Shown: piece by piece, positions 43,649 through 54,834 of the stretch | Layout: the number at the start of each line of letters is the position of its first letter | Numbering within the stretch: the first letter of the stretch is position 1 | Assembly (NCBI RefSeq): GCF_044704955.1 | Contig: NC_091978.1 | Coordinates: 259,656,001 to 259,720,000, forward strand | Source: Pristiophorus japonicus | Taxonomy: Eukaryota | Reading direction: 5' to 3' | DNA length: 64,000 nucleotides | Made by a program: the position numbers and the translations under genes | Notes under the pieces: generated by a model | What the model saw: the letters and a program-made list of their open reading frames with translations, nothing else | What the model was told of the DNA's origin: nothing | The model's database searches: none

Positions 43649-44062
<414 letters not shown>

Positions 44063-44266
44063 TTAACAGCTCGGTGGGGGCTGGGACAGTTCCCTTAGAC
44101 TGGAAGGAGACTAATGTAGTTCCAATCTTTAAAAAAAGGACGACAGCAATAGGAAAGATGCTTGAGGGAATCATTAGGGATGCAATATACGATTACTTAA
44201 ACAGAGAACTAAATATTAGGGACAACCAACTTAGCTTCAAAAATGGAGGCCCTTTCTAATTTCATT

Positions 44267-47200
44267 GGGGCCAAGTTTCAGTCTGAGTTGCTCCTGTTTT
44301 TTTGGAGCAACTGGTTTAGAATGGAGTATCTTAGAAATTTGAATTCTCGGCATTTAGTTTGTTCCAGTTCTAGTCAGTTAGAACAGTTTCACTTTGGAAC
44401 AGAATTTTTTTTTTTCAAAAGGGGTCGTGTCCGGCCACTTACGCCTGTTTTCAAAGTTTAGGCAGTACAAACTTACTCAAAACTAACTTAGAATGGAGTA
44501 AGTGAAGATTTTTGTACGTTCGAAAAAACCTTGTCTACACTCTGGAAAATCAGGCAGAGGTTATAAATTAGGCGTAGGGAATGAGGGGTGGTGGGGGGGT
44601 TTAAAGGGAAGTTGACAAACATTAAATACTTCAGTTTTACAAATAAAGAGCCATCATCAATAATAAATGATAAATACATCAATAAATCAATCAATCAAGG
44701 GGGGTGGGGAGGGGGAGGGAAAGAGAGAGAGGGAGGGGAAGGGGGAGGGCGGAGGGAGGGGAAGGGGGGCGAAGGGAGAGGGCGGAGGGAGGGGAAGGGA
44801 GAGGGCGGAGGGAGGGGAAGGGAGAGGGCGGAGGGAGGGGAAGGGAGAGGGCGGAGGGAGGGGAAGGGAGAGGGCGGAGGGAGGGGAAGGGAGAGGGCGG
44901 AGGGAGGGGAAGGGAGAGGGCGGAGGTGGGGAAGGGAGAGGGCGGAGGGAGGGGAAGGGAGAGAGCGGAGGGAGGGGAAGGGAGAGAGCGGAGGGAGGGG
45001 AAGGGAGAGAGCGGAGGGAGGGGAAGGGAGAGAGCGGAGGGAGGGGAAGGGAGAGAGCGGAGGGAGGGGAAGGGAGAGAGCGGAGGGAGGGGAAGGGAGA
45101 GAGCGGAGGGAGGGGAAGGGAGAGAGCGGAGGGAGGGGAAGGGAGAGAGCGGAGGGAGGGGAAGGGAGAGAGCGGAGGGAGGGGAAGGGAGAGAGCGGAG
45201 GGAGGGGAAGGGAGAGAGCGGAGGGAGGGGAAGGGAGAGAGCGGAGGGAGGGGAAGGGAGAGAGCGGAGGGAGGGGAAGGGAGAGAGCGGAGGGAGGGGA
45301 AGGGAGAGAGCGGAGGGAGGGGAAGGGAGAGAGCGGAGGGAGGGGAAGGGAGAGAGCGGAGGGAGGGGAAGGGAGAGAGCGGAGGGAGGGGAAGGGAGAG
45401 AGCGGAGGGAGGGGAAGGGAGAGAGCGGAGGGAGGGGAAGGGAGAGAGCGGAGGGAGGGGAAGGGAGAGAGCGGAGGGAGGGGAAGGGAGAGAGCGGAGG
45501 GAGGGGAAGGGAGAGAGCGGAGGGAGGGGAAGGGAGAGAGCGGAGGGAGGGGAAGGGAGAGAGCGGAGGGAGGGGAAGGGAGAGAGCGGAGGGAGGGGAA
45601 GGGAGAGAGCGGAGGGAGGGGAAGGGAGAGAGCGGAGGGAGGGGAAGGGAGAGAGCGGAGGGAGGGGAAGGGAGAGAGCGGAGGGAGGGGAAGGGAGAGA
45701 GCGGAGGGAGGGGAAGGGAGAGAGCGGAGGGAGGGGAAGGGAGAGAGCGGAGGGAGGGGAAGGGAGAGAGCGGAGGGAGGGGAAGGGAGAGAGCGGAGGG
45801 AGGGGAAGGGAGAGAGCGGAGGGAGGGGAAGGGAGAGAGCGGAGGGAGGGGAAGGGAGAGAGCGGAGGGAGGGGAAGGGAGAGAGCGGAGGGAGGGGAAG
45901 GGAGAGAGCGGAGGGAGGGGAAGGGAGAGAGCGGAGGGAGGGGAAGGGAGAGAGCGGAGGGAGGGGAAGGGAGAGAGCGGAGGGAGGGGAAGGGAGAGAG
46001 CGGAGGGAGGGGAAGGGAGAGAGCGGAGGGAGGGGAAGGGAGAGAGCGGAGGGAGGGGAAGGGAGAGAGCGGAGGGAGGGGAAGGGAGAGAGCGGAGGGA
46101 GGGGAAGGGAGAGAGCGGAGGGAGGGGAAGGGAGAGAGCGGAGGGAGGGGAAGGGAGAGAGCGGAGGGAGGGGAAGGGAGAGAGCGGAGGGAGGGGAAGG
46201 GAGAGAGCGGAGGGAGGGGAAGGGAGAGAGCGGAGGGAGGGGAAGGGAGAGAGCGGAGGGAGGGGAAGGGAGAGAGCGGAGGGAGGGGAAGGGAGAGAGC
46301 GGAGGGAGGGGAAGGGAGAGAGCGGAGGGAGGGGAAGGGAGAGAGCGGAGGGAGGGGAAGGGAGAGAGCGGAGGGAGGGGAAGGGAGAGAGCGGAGGGAG
46401 GGGAAGGGAGAGAGAGGAGGGAGGGAGCGGAGGGAGGGGGGAAGGGAGAGAGCGGAGGGAGGGGAAGGGAGAGAGCGGAGGGAGGGGAAGGGAGAGAGCG
46501 GAGGGAGGGGAAGGGAGAGAGCGGAGGGAGGGGAAGGGAGAGAGCGGAGGGAGGGAAGGGAGAGAGCGGAGGGAGGGGAAGGGAGAGAGCGGAGGGAGGG
46601 GAAGGGAGAGAGCGGAGGGAAGGGAAGGGAGAGGAGGGAGGGGAAGGGAGAGAGCGGAGGGAGGGGAAGGGAGAGAGCGGAGGGAGGGGAAGGGAGAGAG
46701 CGGAGGGAGGGGAAGGGAGAGAGCGGAGGGAGGGGAAGGGAGAGAGCGGAGGGGAGGGGGAAGGGAGAGAGCGGAGGGAGGGGAAGGGAGAGAGCGGAGG
46801 GAGGGGAAGGGAAGAGCGGAAGGGAGGGGAAGGGAGAGAGCGGAGGGAGGGGAAGGGAGAGAGCGGAGGGAGGGGAAGGGAGAGAGCGGAGGGAGGGGAA
46901 GGGAGAGAGCGGAGGGAGGGGAAGGGAGAGAGCGGAGGGAGGGGAAGGGAGAGAGCGGAGGGAGGGGAAGGGAGAGAGCGGAGGGAGGGGAAGGGAGAGA
47001 GCGGAGGGAGGGGAAGGGAGAGAGCGGAGGGAGGGGAAGGGAGAGAGCGGAGGGAGGGGAGCGGAGGGAGGGGAAGGGAGAGAGCGGAGGGAGGGGAAGG
47101 GAGAGAGCGAGGGAGGGGAAGGGAGAGAGCGGAGGGAGGGGAAGGGAGAGAGCGGAGGGAGGGGAAGGGAGGAGAGCGGAGGGGAGGGGAAGGGAGGAGA

Positions 47201-48857
47201 GCGGAGGGAGGGAAGGGGAGAGAGCGGNNNNNNNNNNNNNNNNNNNNNNNNNNNNNNNNNNNNNNNNNNNNNNNNNNNNNNNNNNNNNNNNNNNNNNNNN
47301 NNNNNNNNNNNNNNNNNNNNNNNNNNNNNNNNNNNNNNNNNNNNNNNNNNNNNNNNNNNNNNNNNNNNNNNNNNNNNNNNNNNNNNNNNNNNNNNNNNNN
47401 NNNNNNNNNNNNNNNNNNNNNNNNNNNGGGAAGGGAGAGAGCGGAGGGAGGGGAAGGGAGAGAGCGGAGGGAGGGGAAGGGAGAGAGCGGAGGGAGGGGA
47501 AGGGAGAGAGCGGAGGGAGGGGAAGGGAGAGAGCGGAGGGAGGGGAAGGGAGAGAGCGGAGGGAGGGGAAGGGAGAGAGCGGAGGGAGGGGAAGGGAGAG
47601 AGCGGAGGGAGGGGAAGGGAGAGAGCGGAGGGAGGGGAAGGGAGAGAGCGGAGGGAGGGGAAGGGAGAGAGCGGAGGGAGGGGAAGGGAGAGAGCGGAGG
47701 GAGGGGAAGGGAGAGAGCGGAGGGAGGGGAAGGGAGAGAGCGGAGGGAGGGGGAAGGGAGAGAGCGGAGGGAGGGGAAGGGAGAGAGCGGAGGGAGGGGA
47801 AGGGAGAGAGAGCGGAGGGAGGGGAAGGGAGAGAGCGGAGGGAGGGGAAGGGAGAGAGCGGAGGGAGGGGAAGGGAGAGAGCGGAGGGAGGGGAAGGGAG
47901 AGAGCGGAGGGAGGGGAAGGGAGAGAGCGGAGGGAGGGGAAGGGAGAGAGCGGAGGGAGGGGAAGGGAGAGAGCGGAGGGAGGGGAAGGGAGAGAGCGGA
48001 GGGAGGGGAAGGGAGAGAGCGGAGGGAGGGGAAGGGAGAGAGCGGAGGGAGGGGAAGGGAGAGAGCGGAGGGAGGGGAAGGGAGAGAGCGGAGGGAGGGG
48101 AAGGGAGAGAGCGGAGGGAGGGGAAGGGAGAGAGCGGAGGGAGGGGAAGGGAGAGAGCGGAGGGAGGGGAAGGGAGAGAGCGGAGGGAGGGGAAGGGAGA
48201 GAGCGGAGGGAGGGGAAGGGAGAGAGCGGAGGGAGGGGAAGGGAGAGAGCGGAGGGAGGGGAAGGGAGAGAGCGGAGGGAGGGGAAGGGAGAGAGCGGAG
48301 GGAGGGGAAGGGAGAGAGCGGAGGGAGGGGAAGGGAGAGAGCGGAGGGAGGGGAAGGGAGAGAGCGGAGGGAGGGGAAGGGAGAGAGCGGAGGGAGGGGA
48401 AGGGAGAGAGCGGAGGGAGGGGAAGGGAGAGAGCGGAGGGAGGGGAAGGGAGAGAGCGGAGGGAGGGGAAGGGAGAGAGCGGAGGGAGGGGAAGGGAGAG
48501 AGCGGAGGGAGGGGAAGGGAGAGAGCGGAGGGAGGGGGGAGGGGAAGGGGAGAGAGCGGAGGGAGGGGAAGGGAGAGAGCGGAGGGAGGGGAAGGGGAGG
48601 GAGGGGAAGGGAGAGAGCGGAGGGAGGGAGAGAAGGAGGCTGAACGGCTGGGCCCAAGACTTCGGGCTGGATTTACAGGTCGGTGGCGTCGGGTCTCAGG
48701 GGACGGGAAAGAATTGCGGAGGTCCCGGGCGGTGTTCGGGGGCGGGGGGAGAAAGAGAGTCGTGGAGGTCGAGGGTTGGGGGTGGGCAGAGAGTCGCGGA
48801 GTTCGGAGGCGGGGAGAGAGTCGCGGAGGTCCAGGGATAGGTTGGGTTGGGTCGAGG

Positions 48858-48891
<34 letters not shown>

Positions 48892-49272
48892 AAGAGGCGG
48901 TTGGGGTCGGCTCGGGTCCGGTCAGGTGGGAGGTGAGCCTTATCCACGCAGCCACACTGAGACCATTCGGCCAGGGCCAGGGGCTGCGTGCTTCGGGCCC
49001 CTCCCACAGTTTTGGGCGCCTAGAGCTGCTGCACATGCGCGCCCACCGTAGCGCGCATGTGCAGAGGTCCCGGCACTGTTTTCAGGGCAGGGACCTGGCT
49101 CCGCTCCGCCCCCCCCCCCCCCCCAAAGCTCGTGCTGCGCCTCGCCCAGCTCCAGAGGGCTTGCAGGGTACCGGAGAATCGGTGAGTTTTTTTTCGGCGC
49201 ACTTTGTGGCGCGAAAAACAGGTGTCCAGGTCCGGGCTGCGCCGTTTTAGGCACAACCCGAAACTTGTGCCC
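44267..49272. mobile_element. Harbinger-like non-autonomous element containing the satellite
   Basis: Imperfect TIR GGGGCCAAGTTTC / GAAACTTGTGCCC; flanks ATT and ATA. Confidence 0.65.
44700..48640 (+). repeat. 23-bp polypurine tandem repeat (GCGGAGGGAGGGGAAGGGAGAGA)n with a 200-N gap at 47228-47427
   Basis: Read directly; the 23-aa periodicity in all frames equals 3 units. Confidence 0.97.
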
Positions 49273-50679
49273 ATAGAATCATATAATGATACAGCATAGA
49301 GCAAGCCATAGTGCCTGTGCTACCTCTTTGAGCTATACACTTAGTCCCATTCTCCTGCCTTTTTTTCATAGTCCTGCAAATTTTTCTCCTTCAAGTATTT
49401 ATCCAATTCCCCTTTAAAAGTTATGATTGAATCAGCTTCCATCATCATTTCAGGCAGTGCATTCTAGATCACAACAACTCGCTGCATTTGCATTTTTTGA
49501 TTAAATACCTAAGATAGTGGATGAGCGAAACCCGGGTGTCTCCCTTGACTTCCAAAAAGCTTTTGATCAAGTACCACACGAGAGGCTTCTCTACAAGATG
49601 GGCATTAGTGAAAATCTACTGCGCTGGATTGAGAATTGGCTGGAAGGCCCTCGGAAGACAGTTGTAGATGGATTTGGATCTGCTTGGAGACCGGTGGTGT
49701 CCCGCATTGGTGTTAAGGTCTTTACCATTCATTATTTTTATTAATGATCTAGATATAAGTGTTAATATCAGCTGCTAATTTGCAGATCGTTCCTCTAAGA
49801 TATGTGCGAGAGTTCGGACTGTAGACGATGCTCGACTACTACAGGCAGATTGAGATGCGCTGAGGGAATTGGGCTGATGATTGGCAAATGATGTTTAACT
49901 TAGAAGTGTTATGCATGTGGAAAAGGTCAATCCACGATAAGACAAAGTATACTATTTTGTACAAGATCTTGGTCTGGCCTCAGTTAGAACAGTGCGTACA
50001 GTTTTGTTCTGCTCACATAGCAGGTGATATTGAGGTTTTGGAAAGGGTGCAGAGGAGAGCCACAAGAATAATTCCCAGTATGAAGCATCTCTATTACCAA
50101 GATAGGCTCCAAGAGCTGGCATTCTACACTTTAAAAAAACATAGACTTAGGGATGATTTGATCGAGGGTTATATGATGATGAAGGAATAGATTGTTTGTG
50201 TTAACAGTTTGTTTCAACTAAATAGGTTAGGGAGAACCAGGGGTCACAATTTCAAGTTGTACAAGGCCAGATCTAGGTTAGATACCAGAAGGTGAATCTT
50301 TTCCCAGTGAATAGACGACCAGGTTCAGGTGCAGTGGATAAGATTTGGTGAATTCCTTCAAACGAGAGCTGGACCTGTTTCTGGCTGGGGCAGAGATCAT
50401 CCCGTACTAAAGGTAGGTACTCTATAATATCAGGACCAGAGTGGCCTCTAGGACTAGTTTTGATTGTCTAAGGGAGAGAAGAGGAATTCTCCAGATTTCT
50501 CTCCACTAATTGGCCTGGGATTTTATTTGGTTTTTCACCTCTCCCAGATTACATGGCTTTCATGTGGGGTGGAAAATGTATAAACTGTTATACACAAGAC
50601 ATCAAAGTTGTGTGGTACAGGCTGAATAGACGAGTGTGTTTTGCTGTCTGCCGTTGTTCATATGTAAACCCTTGACGTC

Positions 50680-51823: not shown

Positions 51824-52016
51824 TCAGTGCAGCAGAATAATTGGAAAATGGTGACCATAACAGTTAGGTTCGAAGTGAAAAACAGAAAAGGAATATGAAA
51901 CAGATAATGAATGGACTAGAAAAACAGTTGAAAGATCTGTCCTAAAATAATTCAACAATGTGCAAGAACACAGAGTCTGTAAAAGTATCATCCACTCTGC
52001 TGCACAGCCCGGGAAC

Positions 52017-53030
52017 GCTCTGTGCAGTGCTGGCTCGGTTTGTGTAGTGCCCGGGGCCGCTCTGTACAATGCCAACCCGTTTGTGCAATGCCCGGGGCCC
52101 GCTCTGTGCAGTGCCCCGGTGTGTGCAGTGCCCAAGGCCCGCTCTGTGCATTGCCCCGGTGTGTGCAGTGCCCAGGGCCAGCTCTGTGCAGTGCCCAGGT
52201 GTGTGCAGTGCCCAGGGCCCGCTCTGTGCAGTGCCCCAGTGTGTGCAGTGCCCAGAACCCGCTCTGTGCAGTGCCCCGGTGTGTGCAGTGCCCAGGGCCC
52301 GCTCTGTGCAGTGCCCCGGTGTGTGCAGTGCCCAGGGCCCGCTCTGTGCAGTGCCCAGAACCCGCTCTGTGCAGTGCCCCGGTGTGCAGTGCCCAGGGCC
52401 CGCTCTGTGCAGTGCCCCGGTGTGTGCAGTGCCCAGGGCCCGCTCTGTGCAGTGCCCCGGTGTGTGCAGTGCCCAGGGCCCGCTCTGTGCAGTGCCCCGG
52501 TGTGTGCAGTGCCCAGGGCCCGCTCTGTGCGGTGCCCCGGTGTGTGCAGTGCCCAGGGCCCGCTCTGTGCGGTGCCCCGGTGTGTGCAGTGCCCAAGGCC
52601 CGCTCTGTGCGGTGCCCCGGTGTGTGCAGTGCCCAGGGCCCGCTCTGTGCAGTGCCCCGGTGTGTGCAGTGCCCAGGGCCCGCTCTGTGCAGTGCCCCGG
52701 TGTGTGCAGTGCCCAGGGCCCGCTCTGTGCAGTGCCCCGGTGTGTGCAGTGCCCAGGGCCCGCTCTGTGCAGTGCCCCGATGTGTGCAGTGCCCAGAACC
52801 CGCTCTGTGCAGTGCCCCGGTGTGTGCAGTGCCCAGGGCCCACTCTGTGCAGTGCCCCGGTGTGTGCAGTGCCCAGGGCCCGCTCTGTGCGCTGCCCCGG
52901 TGTGTGCAGTGCCCAGGGCCCGCTCTGTGCGGTGCCCCGGTGTGTGCAGTGCCCAGGGCCCGCTCTGTGCAGTGCCCCGGTGTGTGCAGTGCCCAGGGCC
53001 CGCTCTGTGCAGTGCCCCGATGTGTGCGGT
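52017..53030 (+). repeat. 40-bp GC-rich minisatellite (CGCTCTGTGCAGTGCCCCGGTGTGTGCAGTGCCCAGGGCC)n
   Basis: Read directly; the unit is a dimer built on TGTGCAGTGCCC. Confidence 0.96.
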
Positions 53031-53460
53031 GCGGGTGAGCAGCGCGCGGCGCCATTGACCTACCGAACCCAGCTGTGGAACGTCCCCCGGAGCACGCGCT
53101 CCCTCCGGCCACGTGCGCTCAGCCCCGCTTGTAAAGGGGAAAAGAGCAAAAGGCAAAACCTAATTTACTTCTCGAGGCGTTGAAGCAAACCAATGGCTTT
53201 ATATAAAATTAGTTGACATTGCACAGCTCAGTCGCCTGTTATGTTTCAAATGCCGATTCATCTCAACTTTGTTTCCAGTTTTCAATTAGACTTTTTTTTA
53301 CCACGCTTTTACGACAGTCTTCGGTCGCTTCGTCTCCGACCGCCGCATCACCAATGAATGTGAGCGCTGTCAGCCGGCGTGCCCTCTATAGGGAGCGCAT
53401 TGCAACGACCCAGAGCAGCACAGTAGTTGTGCGCCGTCTAGCGGCAGAATCTGTGCACCA
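53030..53460 (-). promoter_or_regulatory. CpG-rich unique segment: probable GAR1 promoter and non-coding first exon
   Basis: The only non-repeat CpG-rich block upstream of GAR1; minus-strand donor CG|GTAGGT at 53063; E-box CACGTG at 53110-53115. Confidence 0.55.
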
Positions 53461-53462
53461 CT

Positions 53463-54200
53463 TCAACAACAACAACAACAAAACTTGTAATTATATAGCT
53501 CATTTAAAGCAGCAAAACGCGCTAAGGCGCTGCGCAAGAGTGTTATGAGACAAAAATTTGACACCAAGCCACATAAGAAGAAATTAGATCACCAATAGCT
53601 TGGTCAAAGAGGTAGATTTTAAGCGACTTAAAGGAGGAAAGTCATGTAGAGAGGCAGAGAGGTTTAGGGAGGGGATTTCAAAGCTTAGGGCCTAGGCAGT
53701 TGAAAGCACAGTCGGCCATAGTTGAGTGATTATAATCAGAATTAGAGGAGTGCAGACATCCTCGGGGGTTGTGGGGTTGAAGGAGTTGTGTGATGGTGGT
53801 TCAGTGGTAAGCATGGTTGTCTTCCAAGCAGTTGACCTGGGTTCAATTCCTAGCCATCACATTTGTCAATTTCTACTTGAGGATGAAATGATCCTCTGAT
53901 GACTCTGGTTGCAAGCAGTTCTTACAGCAGCATCTCATGGATTTTCCCCTCCCCTTTTATAGGGGGCACTTGTAAATTATGGTTTTAGAGCCAAAAAAAA
54001 CACAAAAAAAACCTACAAAAATACAAAAAAAAAGGGCCTTGGGAAATGTTTGGAGTGTCCCCCAGATCGGGGGGGGGGGGGGGGCACTTGATCTAATGTT
54101 TATTTTGTTTACACTAATAGAGTTGTGGGGTTGAAGGAGATTGCAGAGATAGGGAGGGGCGGGGCCATGGAGGGATTTGAAAACAAGGACGAGAATCCTT
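53463..54200 (-). mobile_element. L2 3' fragment interrupted by the tRNA-headed insertion
   Basis: (AAC)n tail at 53463; ILVLVFKSLHGPAPPYLCNLLQP. Confidence 0.7.
53790..53861 (+). tRNA. tRNA-Gly(TCC)-like sequence, probably a pseudogene or SINE head
   Basis: 72 nt, acceptor stem GTGATGG/CCATCAC, anticodon loop CTTCCAA, T-loop TTCAATT; the anticodon stem is weakened by G-U pairs. Confidence 0.75.
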
Positions 54201-54230: not shown

Positions 54231-54834
54231 AACTATTTTAAGTAAACTTTAAATCAATTGTTCCGCCCCCGCCCCTCCTTGTTAAAGGGGCACTAGAACC
54301 AGCAAATTAACAACTGAAACTTTTACAGTAACTTAAATCAAATTAAAATTTGGTTACCAGGGTTGATGATGCACTCCAGTCCCTCCGGTGTACACCTCTT
54401 GTGGAAGGCCACGAGTGTACCGGTGACACCGCGTGCTCCATCTCCAGGGACACCCTGGCGCAAACGTAAGGACTCCCTCTATAACTCTTTTGGAACACAA
54501 AATTAAACAGTTAAACCAAGTACCCCCTGATCTGAGGGACACTCCAAACATTTTCAAGGCCCTTTTTTTCCTTTTTTGTTGTTTTTTTTGTGGGTTTTTT
54601 TGGGCATTAAAACAAATAATTACAAGTGCCCCCTATAAAAAGGCATGGGGGGACACTAAAAACCCAGCAATAAAACAAATTAAACTTTAAACCATATAAA
54701 ATCAAATTAAAATTTGGTTGCCAGGGGTGATGATGCACTCCAGTCCCTCCAGCGCCCACCTCTCGCGCAAGGCCACGAGCATACCGGTGGACACCACGTG
54801 CTCCATCTCCAGGGACACCCTGGCGCGAACGTAA
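54231..54834 (-). mobile_element. Two tandem 5'-truncated Tx1-like non-LTR fragments (54231-54469 and 54483-54834)
   Basis: Both encode YV(R/C)ARVSLEMEH...EGLECII(T/N)PGNQILI-stop, resembling a Tx1 ORF2 C-terminus, followed by 3' UTRs. Confidence 0.65.

Follow-up and report, generated by a model that had tools for sequence, protein, structure and literature searches.

A one-off chimeric retrocopy of a tRNA-Gly array transcript and a Tx1-type LINE in Pristiophorus japonicus, one of dozens of separate captures

Introduction

A tRNA standing 5' of a LINE-derived tail, with both enclosed in a direct repeat, raises the question of whether the combination belongs to a SINE family or was put together on a single occasion. 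Such a segment lies in the 64,000-nucleotide stretch of the Pristiophorus japonicus genome analysed here (the window). The earlier note on this DNA proposed either a tRNA SINE mobilised by a Tx1-type LINE or a chimera formed by Pol III read-through or template switching. The identity of the parts, the number of comparable loci, and the manner in which the parts were joined are considered in turn below.

Boundaries and parts of the insert

The direct repeat that had drawn attention to this locus was confirmed as an exact 18-mer at 53768-53785 and 54122-54139, with a chance expectation of ~4e-4 per window. The host repeat is continuous across the insert site in 9/9 other copies examined, and the segment is therefore an insertion. 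Because sister inserts carry duplications of 14-15 bp, each starting directly after the AAGAGT end of the element, the true target-site duplication is most likely 14 bp in length (53770-53783 and 54124-54137, plus strand), which places the insert itself at 53784-54123; the additional two plus two nucleotides of the 18-mer would then most likely represent junction microhomologies. The host is a fragment of an old and abundant LINE on the minus strand (5,361 candidates at first look, with 75-83% identity), located at 53560-53769 to the left of the insert and resuming at 54138-54196 by comparison with other host copies. We take it to be L2-like on account of a C-terminal ORF motif.

Along the plus strand, the insert opens with a 6-nt pre-tRNA leader (53784-53789), at which homology to the array units described below begins; its first A is the presumed Pol III start, and its first two nucleotides are also microhomologous to the target. 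The complete 72-nt tRNA-Gly(TCC) that had been recognised from the outset follows at 53790-53861, with internal promoter boxes and without CCA, and was recovered by both ARAGORN and Rfam (52.7 bits). Next comes an 84-nt trailer (53862-53945) ending at the first T4 (53942-53945), a predicted Pol III terminator, to which the last 178 nt of a Tx1-type LINE 3' UTR (53946-54123) are joined without microhomology. This tail is 91-92% identical to two head-less Tx1 copies (L003 and L013).

Outside the insert, two 5'-truncated Tx1 fragments in tandem (~54232-54469 and ~54484-54834, together 54232-54834 on the minus strand) form a separate neighbour with its own duplication. The insert tail is indeed the inverted homologue (76-77%) of the second of these fragments, as had been claimed, and the AAGAGTT end is common to both. 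Two further features of the window are a 40-bp tandem repeat of ~25 copies just upstream of the insert (51961-53040) and a purine-rich low-complexity tract (44000-50000) with a GC skew of up to 0.875 and an AT skew of 1.0.

The head: a predicted precursor from a tandem tRNA-Gly array

A genome search, in which the best 40 of 3,322 candidates were scored, matched positions 1-160 of the insert to tandem genes on contig C19. These genes form a tRNA-Gly(TCC) array with a unit of ~670 bp and ~1,400 copies (G000:C19:44.4-50.7 Mb; L004-L030, L384). An exact 25-mer of the array occurs at 1,413 places and, among the 100 matches listed, 86 lie on C19 and 14 on C5-C18. Head and array are homologous from an A at position -6 relative to the tRNA up to the first T4, which lies 84 nt beyond the tRNA, and no further in either direction; the nearest among the sampled array units has 7 differences from the window's head over 162 nt. 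A T4 stands at the head's position in 66 of 127 distinct sampled array units, and at ~150 or 86-87 in most others. Since the head extends from the array leader to the first T4, the ~90 bp previously regarded as unique sequence is the 3' trailer of the tandem tRNA-Gly array. We infer that transcription starts at the A at -6 and terminates at the T4, the head being the whole predicted primary Pol III transcript, with leader, tRNA, and trailer.

Capture of a mature tRNA was considered and rejected, as an exact pattern for a start at the mature 5' end, which would miss copies with a T in front, matched three array genes and no dispersed locus. Starts farther upstream were represented by 14 off-array matches on C1-C18 with C at -1, from which four were kept and the ten with an array-type flank were left out, being set aside as putative orphan genes or DNA fragments. 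A rare trailer variant was found in four array genes (G000:C19:44458902-44466967) and in 4/37 dispersed loci with a Gly head (L091, L097, L103, and L113), the junctions of which differ. Compared with its four occurrences among 1,413, the variant is enriched in the dispersed loci (Fisher p ~2e-5), and either biased germ-line expression or later array turnover may be suggested to account for the excess. The acceptor stem of the array tRNA-Gly carries U2:A71, presumably a departure from the usual glycine identity pair. An orphan tRNA-Gly cluster was also noted on C18 (51.4-59.8 Mb), as was a similar tRNA-Gly unit in a 627-nt contig from organism B (run X7).

The tail: a Tx1-type partner LINE

The partner LINE is 7.1 kb long and contains ORFs of ~702 and ~1306 aa, which are open in several copies. 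Its ORF2 carries endonuclease (APE) and reverse transcriptase (RT) domains according to Pfam, and, over 99% of its own residues 1-880, shares 54% identity with the ORF2 of Xenopus Tx1 (YTX2_XENLA), which is of similar length. Two ORFs, this pair of domains, and proximity to the Xenopus protein are the marks of the Tx1 clade. The target-site preference of Tx1 elements is likewise seen, one subfamily having 7,008 exact 3'-end/target junctions with a single 14-bp site of a different LINE. The window's own Tx1 subfamily prefers a second, different target motif and uses other sites as well; the targets of Xenopus Tx1 differ from those of the partner LINE here. The 7,008 ends belong to a young Tx1-type family with open ORFs (L136-L172), whose inserts stand in tandem at that 14-bp site, many of them just 11-13 nt long.

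Dispersed relatives and their frequency

The census of Gly-headed loci relied on exact patterns, with the loci sorted by script and by eye, and its counts are lower bounds. The pattern, which required a start at the A at -6, gave 59 matches, 34 of them outside array context and corresponding to 32 loci; the addition of L059 and of the four loci kept from the 25-mer matches brought the total to 37 dispersed loci. A sense join to a Tx1 end is present in 23 of these, an antisense join in two, and a CR1-like LINE in seven, with five left unsorted. Among the 23 sense joins, 14 have long tails, at 13 junction positions (-170 to -1182), and nine have just the last ~6-13 nt; the head ends inside the T-run in 15, within ~10 nt before it in five, and earlier in three. 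Additional RNAs, several of them pre-tRNAs, are carried by ~10/37 Gly loci. Gly heads on the second LINE, which we presume to be CR1-like, are mostly truncated, with a cut near position 80-90. Both tRNA-Gly and U6 heads were noted on this LINE (L096, L100, L116, L122, L124, L308, L309, and L379-L381). Antisense pre-tRNA-Gly pieces on Tx1 tails (L123 and L307) resemble the human twin-priming type.

The frequency of small-RNA heads was estimated from a tail-anchored sample, comprising 90 of the first 100 listed C1 ends out of 7,008. In 35 of these the Tx1 sequence exceeded the fetched stretch, leaving 55 classifiable inserts, including four near-duplicates. Three of the 55, chosen by their Tx1 3' end alone, had a small-RNA head (5.5%; Wilson interval 2-15%), namely the 3' half of a tRNA together with a trailer, a tRNA-Asp likewise followed by a trailer, and a SINE-like fragment combined with a full 5S; for long Tx1 copies the figure was 2/37. 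By extrapolation, a few hundred headed inserts would be expected for one subfamily and target. Human L1 amounts to about half a million copies. The human catalogue, in the available part of PMC13174262, has 253 chimeras of known types and 21 with tRNA, and a comparison of frequencies with it is rough because the present sample favours young inserts on one contig.

SINE family or separate captures

A tRNA SINE mobilised by Tx1 should recur in many copies with the same head and tail, and this expectation was not borne out. The window's head and junction were both found at just one other locus, L115, and a tree of 50 tails separates the tail of that locus from the window's; the junction of L104 lies 5 nt from that of the window. 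The tree comprised nine Gly tails (9/11 long Gly tails tried were recovered) and 41 others, with homopolymers shortened. A single clade of the nine Gly tails was rejected against the 41 others (p-AU 2e-64), and the window's tail was placed among head-less copies. None of its 29 nearest tail relatives bears a Gly head, and one of the 29 bears tRNA-Val with trailer. Four Gly tails (L095, L104, L109, and L115) cluster at 97/95 with four different junctions, and the clustering of the Gly label in the tree exceeds shuffles (7 of 500); head-less copies of this tail subfamily exist and were left out of the tree. The window's exact junction preceded by TTT occurs nine times genome-wide, with two Gly, one Thr, and one intron-retaining tRNA (read as Arg-TCT), three plain truncations, and two longer Tx1 variants. 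Judged from these sequences, it is a recurrent Tx1 break point and not a family signature. At L336 (G000:C1:318.83 Mb), an intron-retaining tRNA is followed by a ~100-nt segment ending in TTT, which is joined to Tx1 at this same junction; this second RNA-like segment matched no Rfam family.

Re-copying of a chimera has been encountered at L113/L114 (G000:C18:7.81 Mb), where the upstream insert copies the neighbouring chimera from the exact Gly start, takes in its tail together with 54 nt of downstream flank, and ends in a new Tx1 tail. This one case would fit Pol III transcription of a chimera that had lost its T4, followed by recapture, and is possibly a proto-SINE step. L127 and L157 are tandem chimeras with an identical head type; the L127 copies agree fully over the first 263 nt, with about ten differing positions and indels in the last ~200 nt. 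For both tandems, DNA-templated copying could be an alternative to recapture. The window's copy is predicted to be a dead end because it retains T4 ahead of the tail, and no re-copied progeny of it was seen.

The insert shares with SINE2 elements a tRNA-derived head with an internal Pol III promoter and a LINE-shared 3' tail inside a target duplication, but many copies of one head-body-tail unit from a master were not found and, at the level of sequence, the T4 stands between head and tail. It corresponds to U6/L1-type chimeras in having a small RNA 5' of a truncated LINE 3' end on the same strand and within one duplication, with independent events and variable junctions. Descent from a single master copy, as a tRNA-Gly SINE of low copy number with a Tx1 tail, would account for the promoter head, LINE tail, and duplication, and could draw on the junctions of L115 and L104 and on the re-copying seen at L113/L114; it is nonetheless largely refuted for the window's copy and improbable, given that the window tail and the L115/L104 tails fall into different groups, the nearest tails lack the head, the junction is common to other RNAs, and T4 precedes the tail. 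A new SINE family was rejected on the two loci with head and junction, the failed clade, the nearest tails, and the shared junction. Still more improbable is the insertion of Tx1 at the terminator of an array gene with Pol III read-through, or two successive insertions at one site. Some Tx1 families target RNA genes, as the available part of PMC4494074 describes, and the window's Tx1 family inserts in tandem; however, Tx1 was absent from all 95 array loci inspected (overlapping, and covering part of the array), head and tail have no duplication between them, and junctions vary. Read-through, one of the two chimera routes entertained in the earlier note, thus finds no support, while the other, a template switch involving a Tx1 3' end and a Pol III RNA, agrees with the observations. 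The insert is a chimeric retrocopy that arose once, as one capture among dozens of independent ones in this genome; within its class it is ordinary.

Joining of the parts

An unprocessed tRNA-Gly array transcript and the last 178 nt of a Tx1-type LINE were likely combined by an RT template jump. The Tx1 RT would reach the end of a broken Tx1 RNA, then switch to the precursor at its oligo-U 3' end and copy this RNA to its start; capture would be nuclear, before RNase P/Z cleavage and splicing, and the parts would be joined by template jumping, not by RNA ligation. What is observed is a head bounded by the array leader and the first T4, a single duplication enclosing both parts, and numerous sister inserts that differ in junction or in captured RNA, or that contain several RNAs in a chain. 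Microhomology amounts to 0-2 nt at 8/9 junctions examined and to 3 nt at one that stopped short of the T-run. The 3' end of another RNA abuts the Gly start at five loci (L091, L105, L110, L113, and L122) and lies directly against the U6 start at L374. The chains read Leu/5S/Gly/tail at L105, Gly/Val/Gln/ORF2 at L109, 5S/Gln-like/Gly at L110, Phe-like/U6/ORF2 at L374, and U6/tRNA/CR1-like at L381. The captured 5S copies (L105, L110, L145, and L202) have one sequence type in common, which we take to be divergent from the usual vertebrate 5S and possibly part of an oocyte-type gene set; a tight pattern for 5S with a short Tx1 tail, which was too specific, gave no matches. A tandem U6 gene array with a unit of ~2.55 kb was also noted (G000:C8:186.57-186.83 Mb).

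Alternatively, an RtcB-type ligase could join the precursor 3' end to cleaved Tx1 RNA, with the fused RNA retrotransposed in cis, as for U6/L1. The anatomy is U6/L1-like, with a whole small RNA, a T-run, a variably truncated LINE, and the scant microhomology given above; the window's junction recurs with plain truncations, as expected of a cleavage site, and U6/Tx1 chimeras are present in this genome too. Against this, primary Pol III transcripts have 5'-triphosphate and 3'-OH ends, the ends of pre-tRNA and 5S being normally 3'-OH, and U6, the cyclic-phosphate RNA, was found in none of the six small-RNA heads from three tail-anchored samples. RtcB requires a cyclic-phosphate 3' end and a 5'-OH and, in the in vitro work covered by the available text of PMC6789731, does not ligate to a 5'-triphosphate, so that the chains would require joining to primary 5' ends which the enzyme refuses. 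The R2 non-LTR RT serially copies at least 10 templates in vitro, according to the accessible part of bioRxiv 2021.04.30.442027. Because the chains join precursors end to start, RtcB needs other ends, and the R2 RT jumps serially, we infer that template jumping is favoured over RtcB ligation, which is regarded as unlikely. In the opposite direction, the evidence for jumping is genomic, the chemistry of the precursor 5' and 3' ends is assumed, and the blunt junctions would fit ligation equally well. The antisense loci L123 and L307 need another route, such as twin priming.

Comparison with known systems

Small-RNA/LINE chimeras are known for several LINE clades, and human pre-tRNA retropseudogenes are mentioned, in the available part of PMC4476161. 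The U6/LINE-1 retrocopies, as described in the accessible portions of PMC6789731 and PMC4476161, are alike in their whole sense Pol III RNA, the T-run where the parts meet, a LINE 3' end truncated to varying extents, a single duplication, and independent origins, whereas the present inserts combine an unprocessed pre-tRNA head with a LINE of Tx1 type and involve many RNA species and chains, and RtcB ligation is unlikely for them. Human tRNA/L1 and 5S/L1 chimeras likewise place a tRNA or 5S 5' of a LINE fragment inside one duplication, but in the part of PMC13174262 available the 21 tRNA cases are mostly half-length and antisense and the 5S cases mostly truncated and antisense, in contrast to the mostly full sense precursors here. 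The tripartite template-jump chimeras of Magnaporthe and mammals also fuse several RNAs by successive switches within one duplication and at preferred switch sites; the portion of PMC2104539 consulted gives one tripartite against 33 bipartite cases, compared with the share of Gly loci carrying extra RNAs here. In crocodilians, the SINEU elements and Tx1-Mar of PMC4494074, in its available text, resemble the present case in the repeated addition of small-RNA 5' sequence by Tx1 machinery, a transposon-targeting Tx1, and tandem insertion, and differ in being amplified families with U1/U2 heads. That paper's test for independent chimeras, a 3' end common to many LINE copies, gives a positive result here. 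Whole sense pre-tRNAs on Tx1 tails, such chains, or cases from cartilaginous fish were not found in the literature searched, the scope of which excluded most subscription journals, Repbase reports, and supplements.

Significance

A broader reading, held tentatively and with a little less than even confidence, is that serial, end-to-end copying of nascent Pol III transcripts is routine for LINE RTs in this genome, taking place in about 1 in 20 Tx1 insertions, such that hundreds of inserts would record germ-line Pol III starts and stops; chimeras that lose the terminator would be expressed from the tRNA promoter they carry and captured again at a neighbouring site, and the first steps of SINE birth would be directly visible. 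How a SINE first acquires its LINE tail usually has to be worked out backwards, starting from finished families. In this genome the intermediates are plentiful and young and can be linked to intact LINE copies, and the choice between ligation and template jumping is therefore directly testable. The captured ends map Pol III starts, terminators, and unspliced precursors from DNA alone, and the chains suggest that R2-like serial jumping, known in vitro, occurs in a vertebrate germ line.
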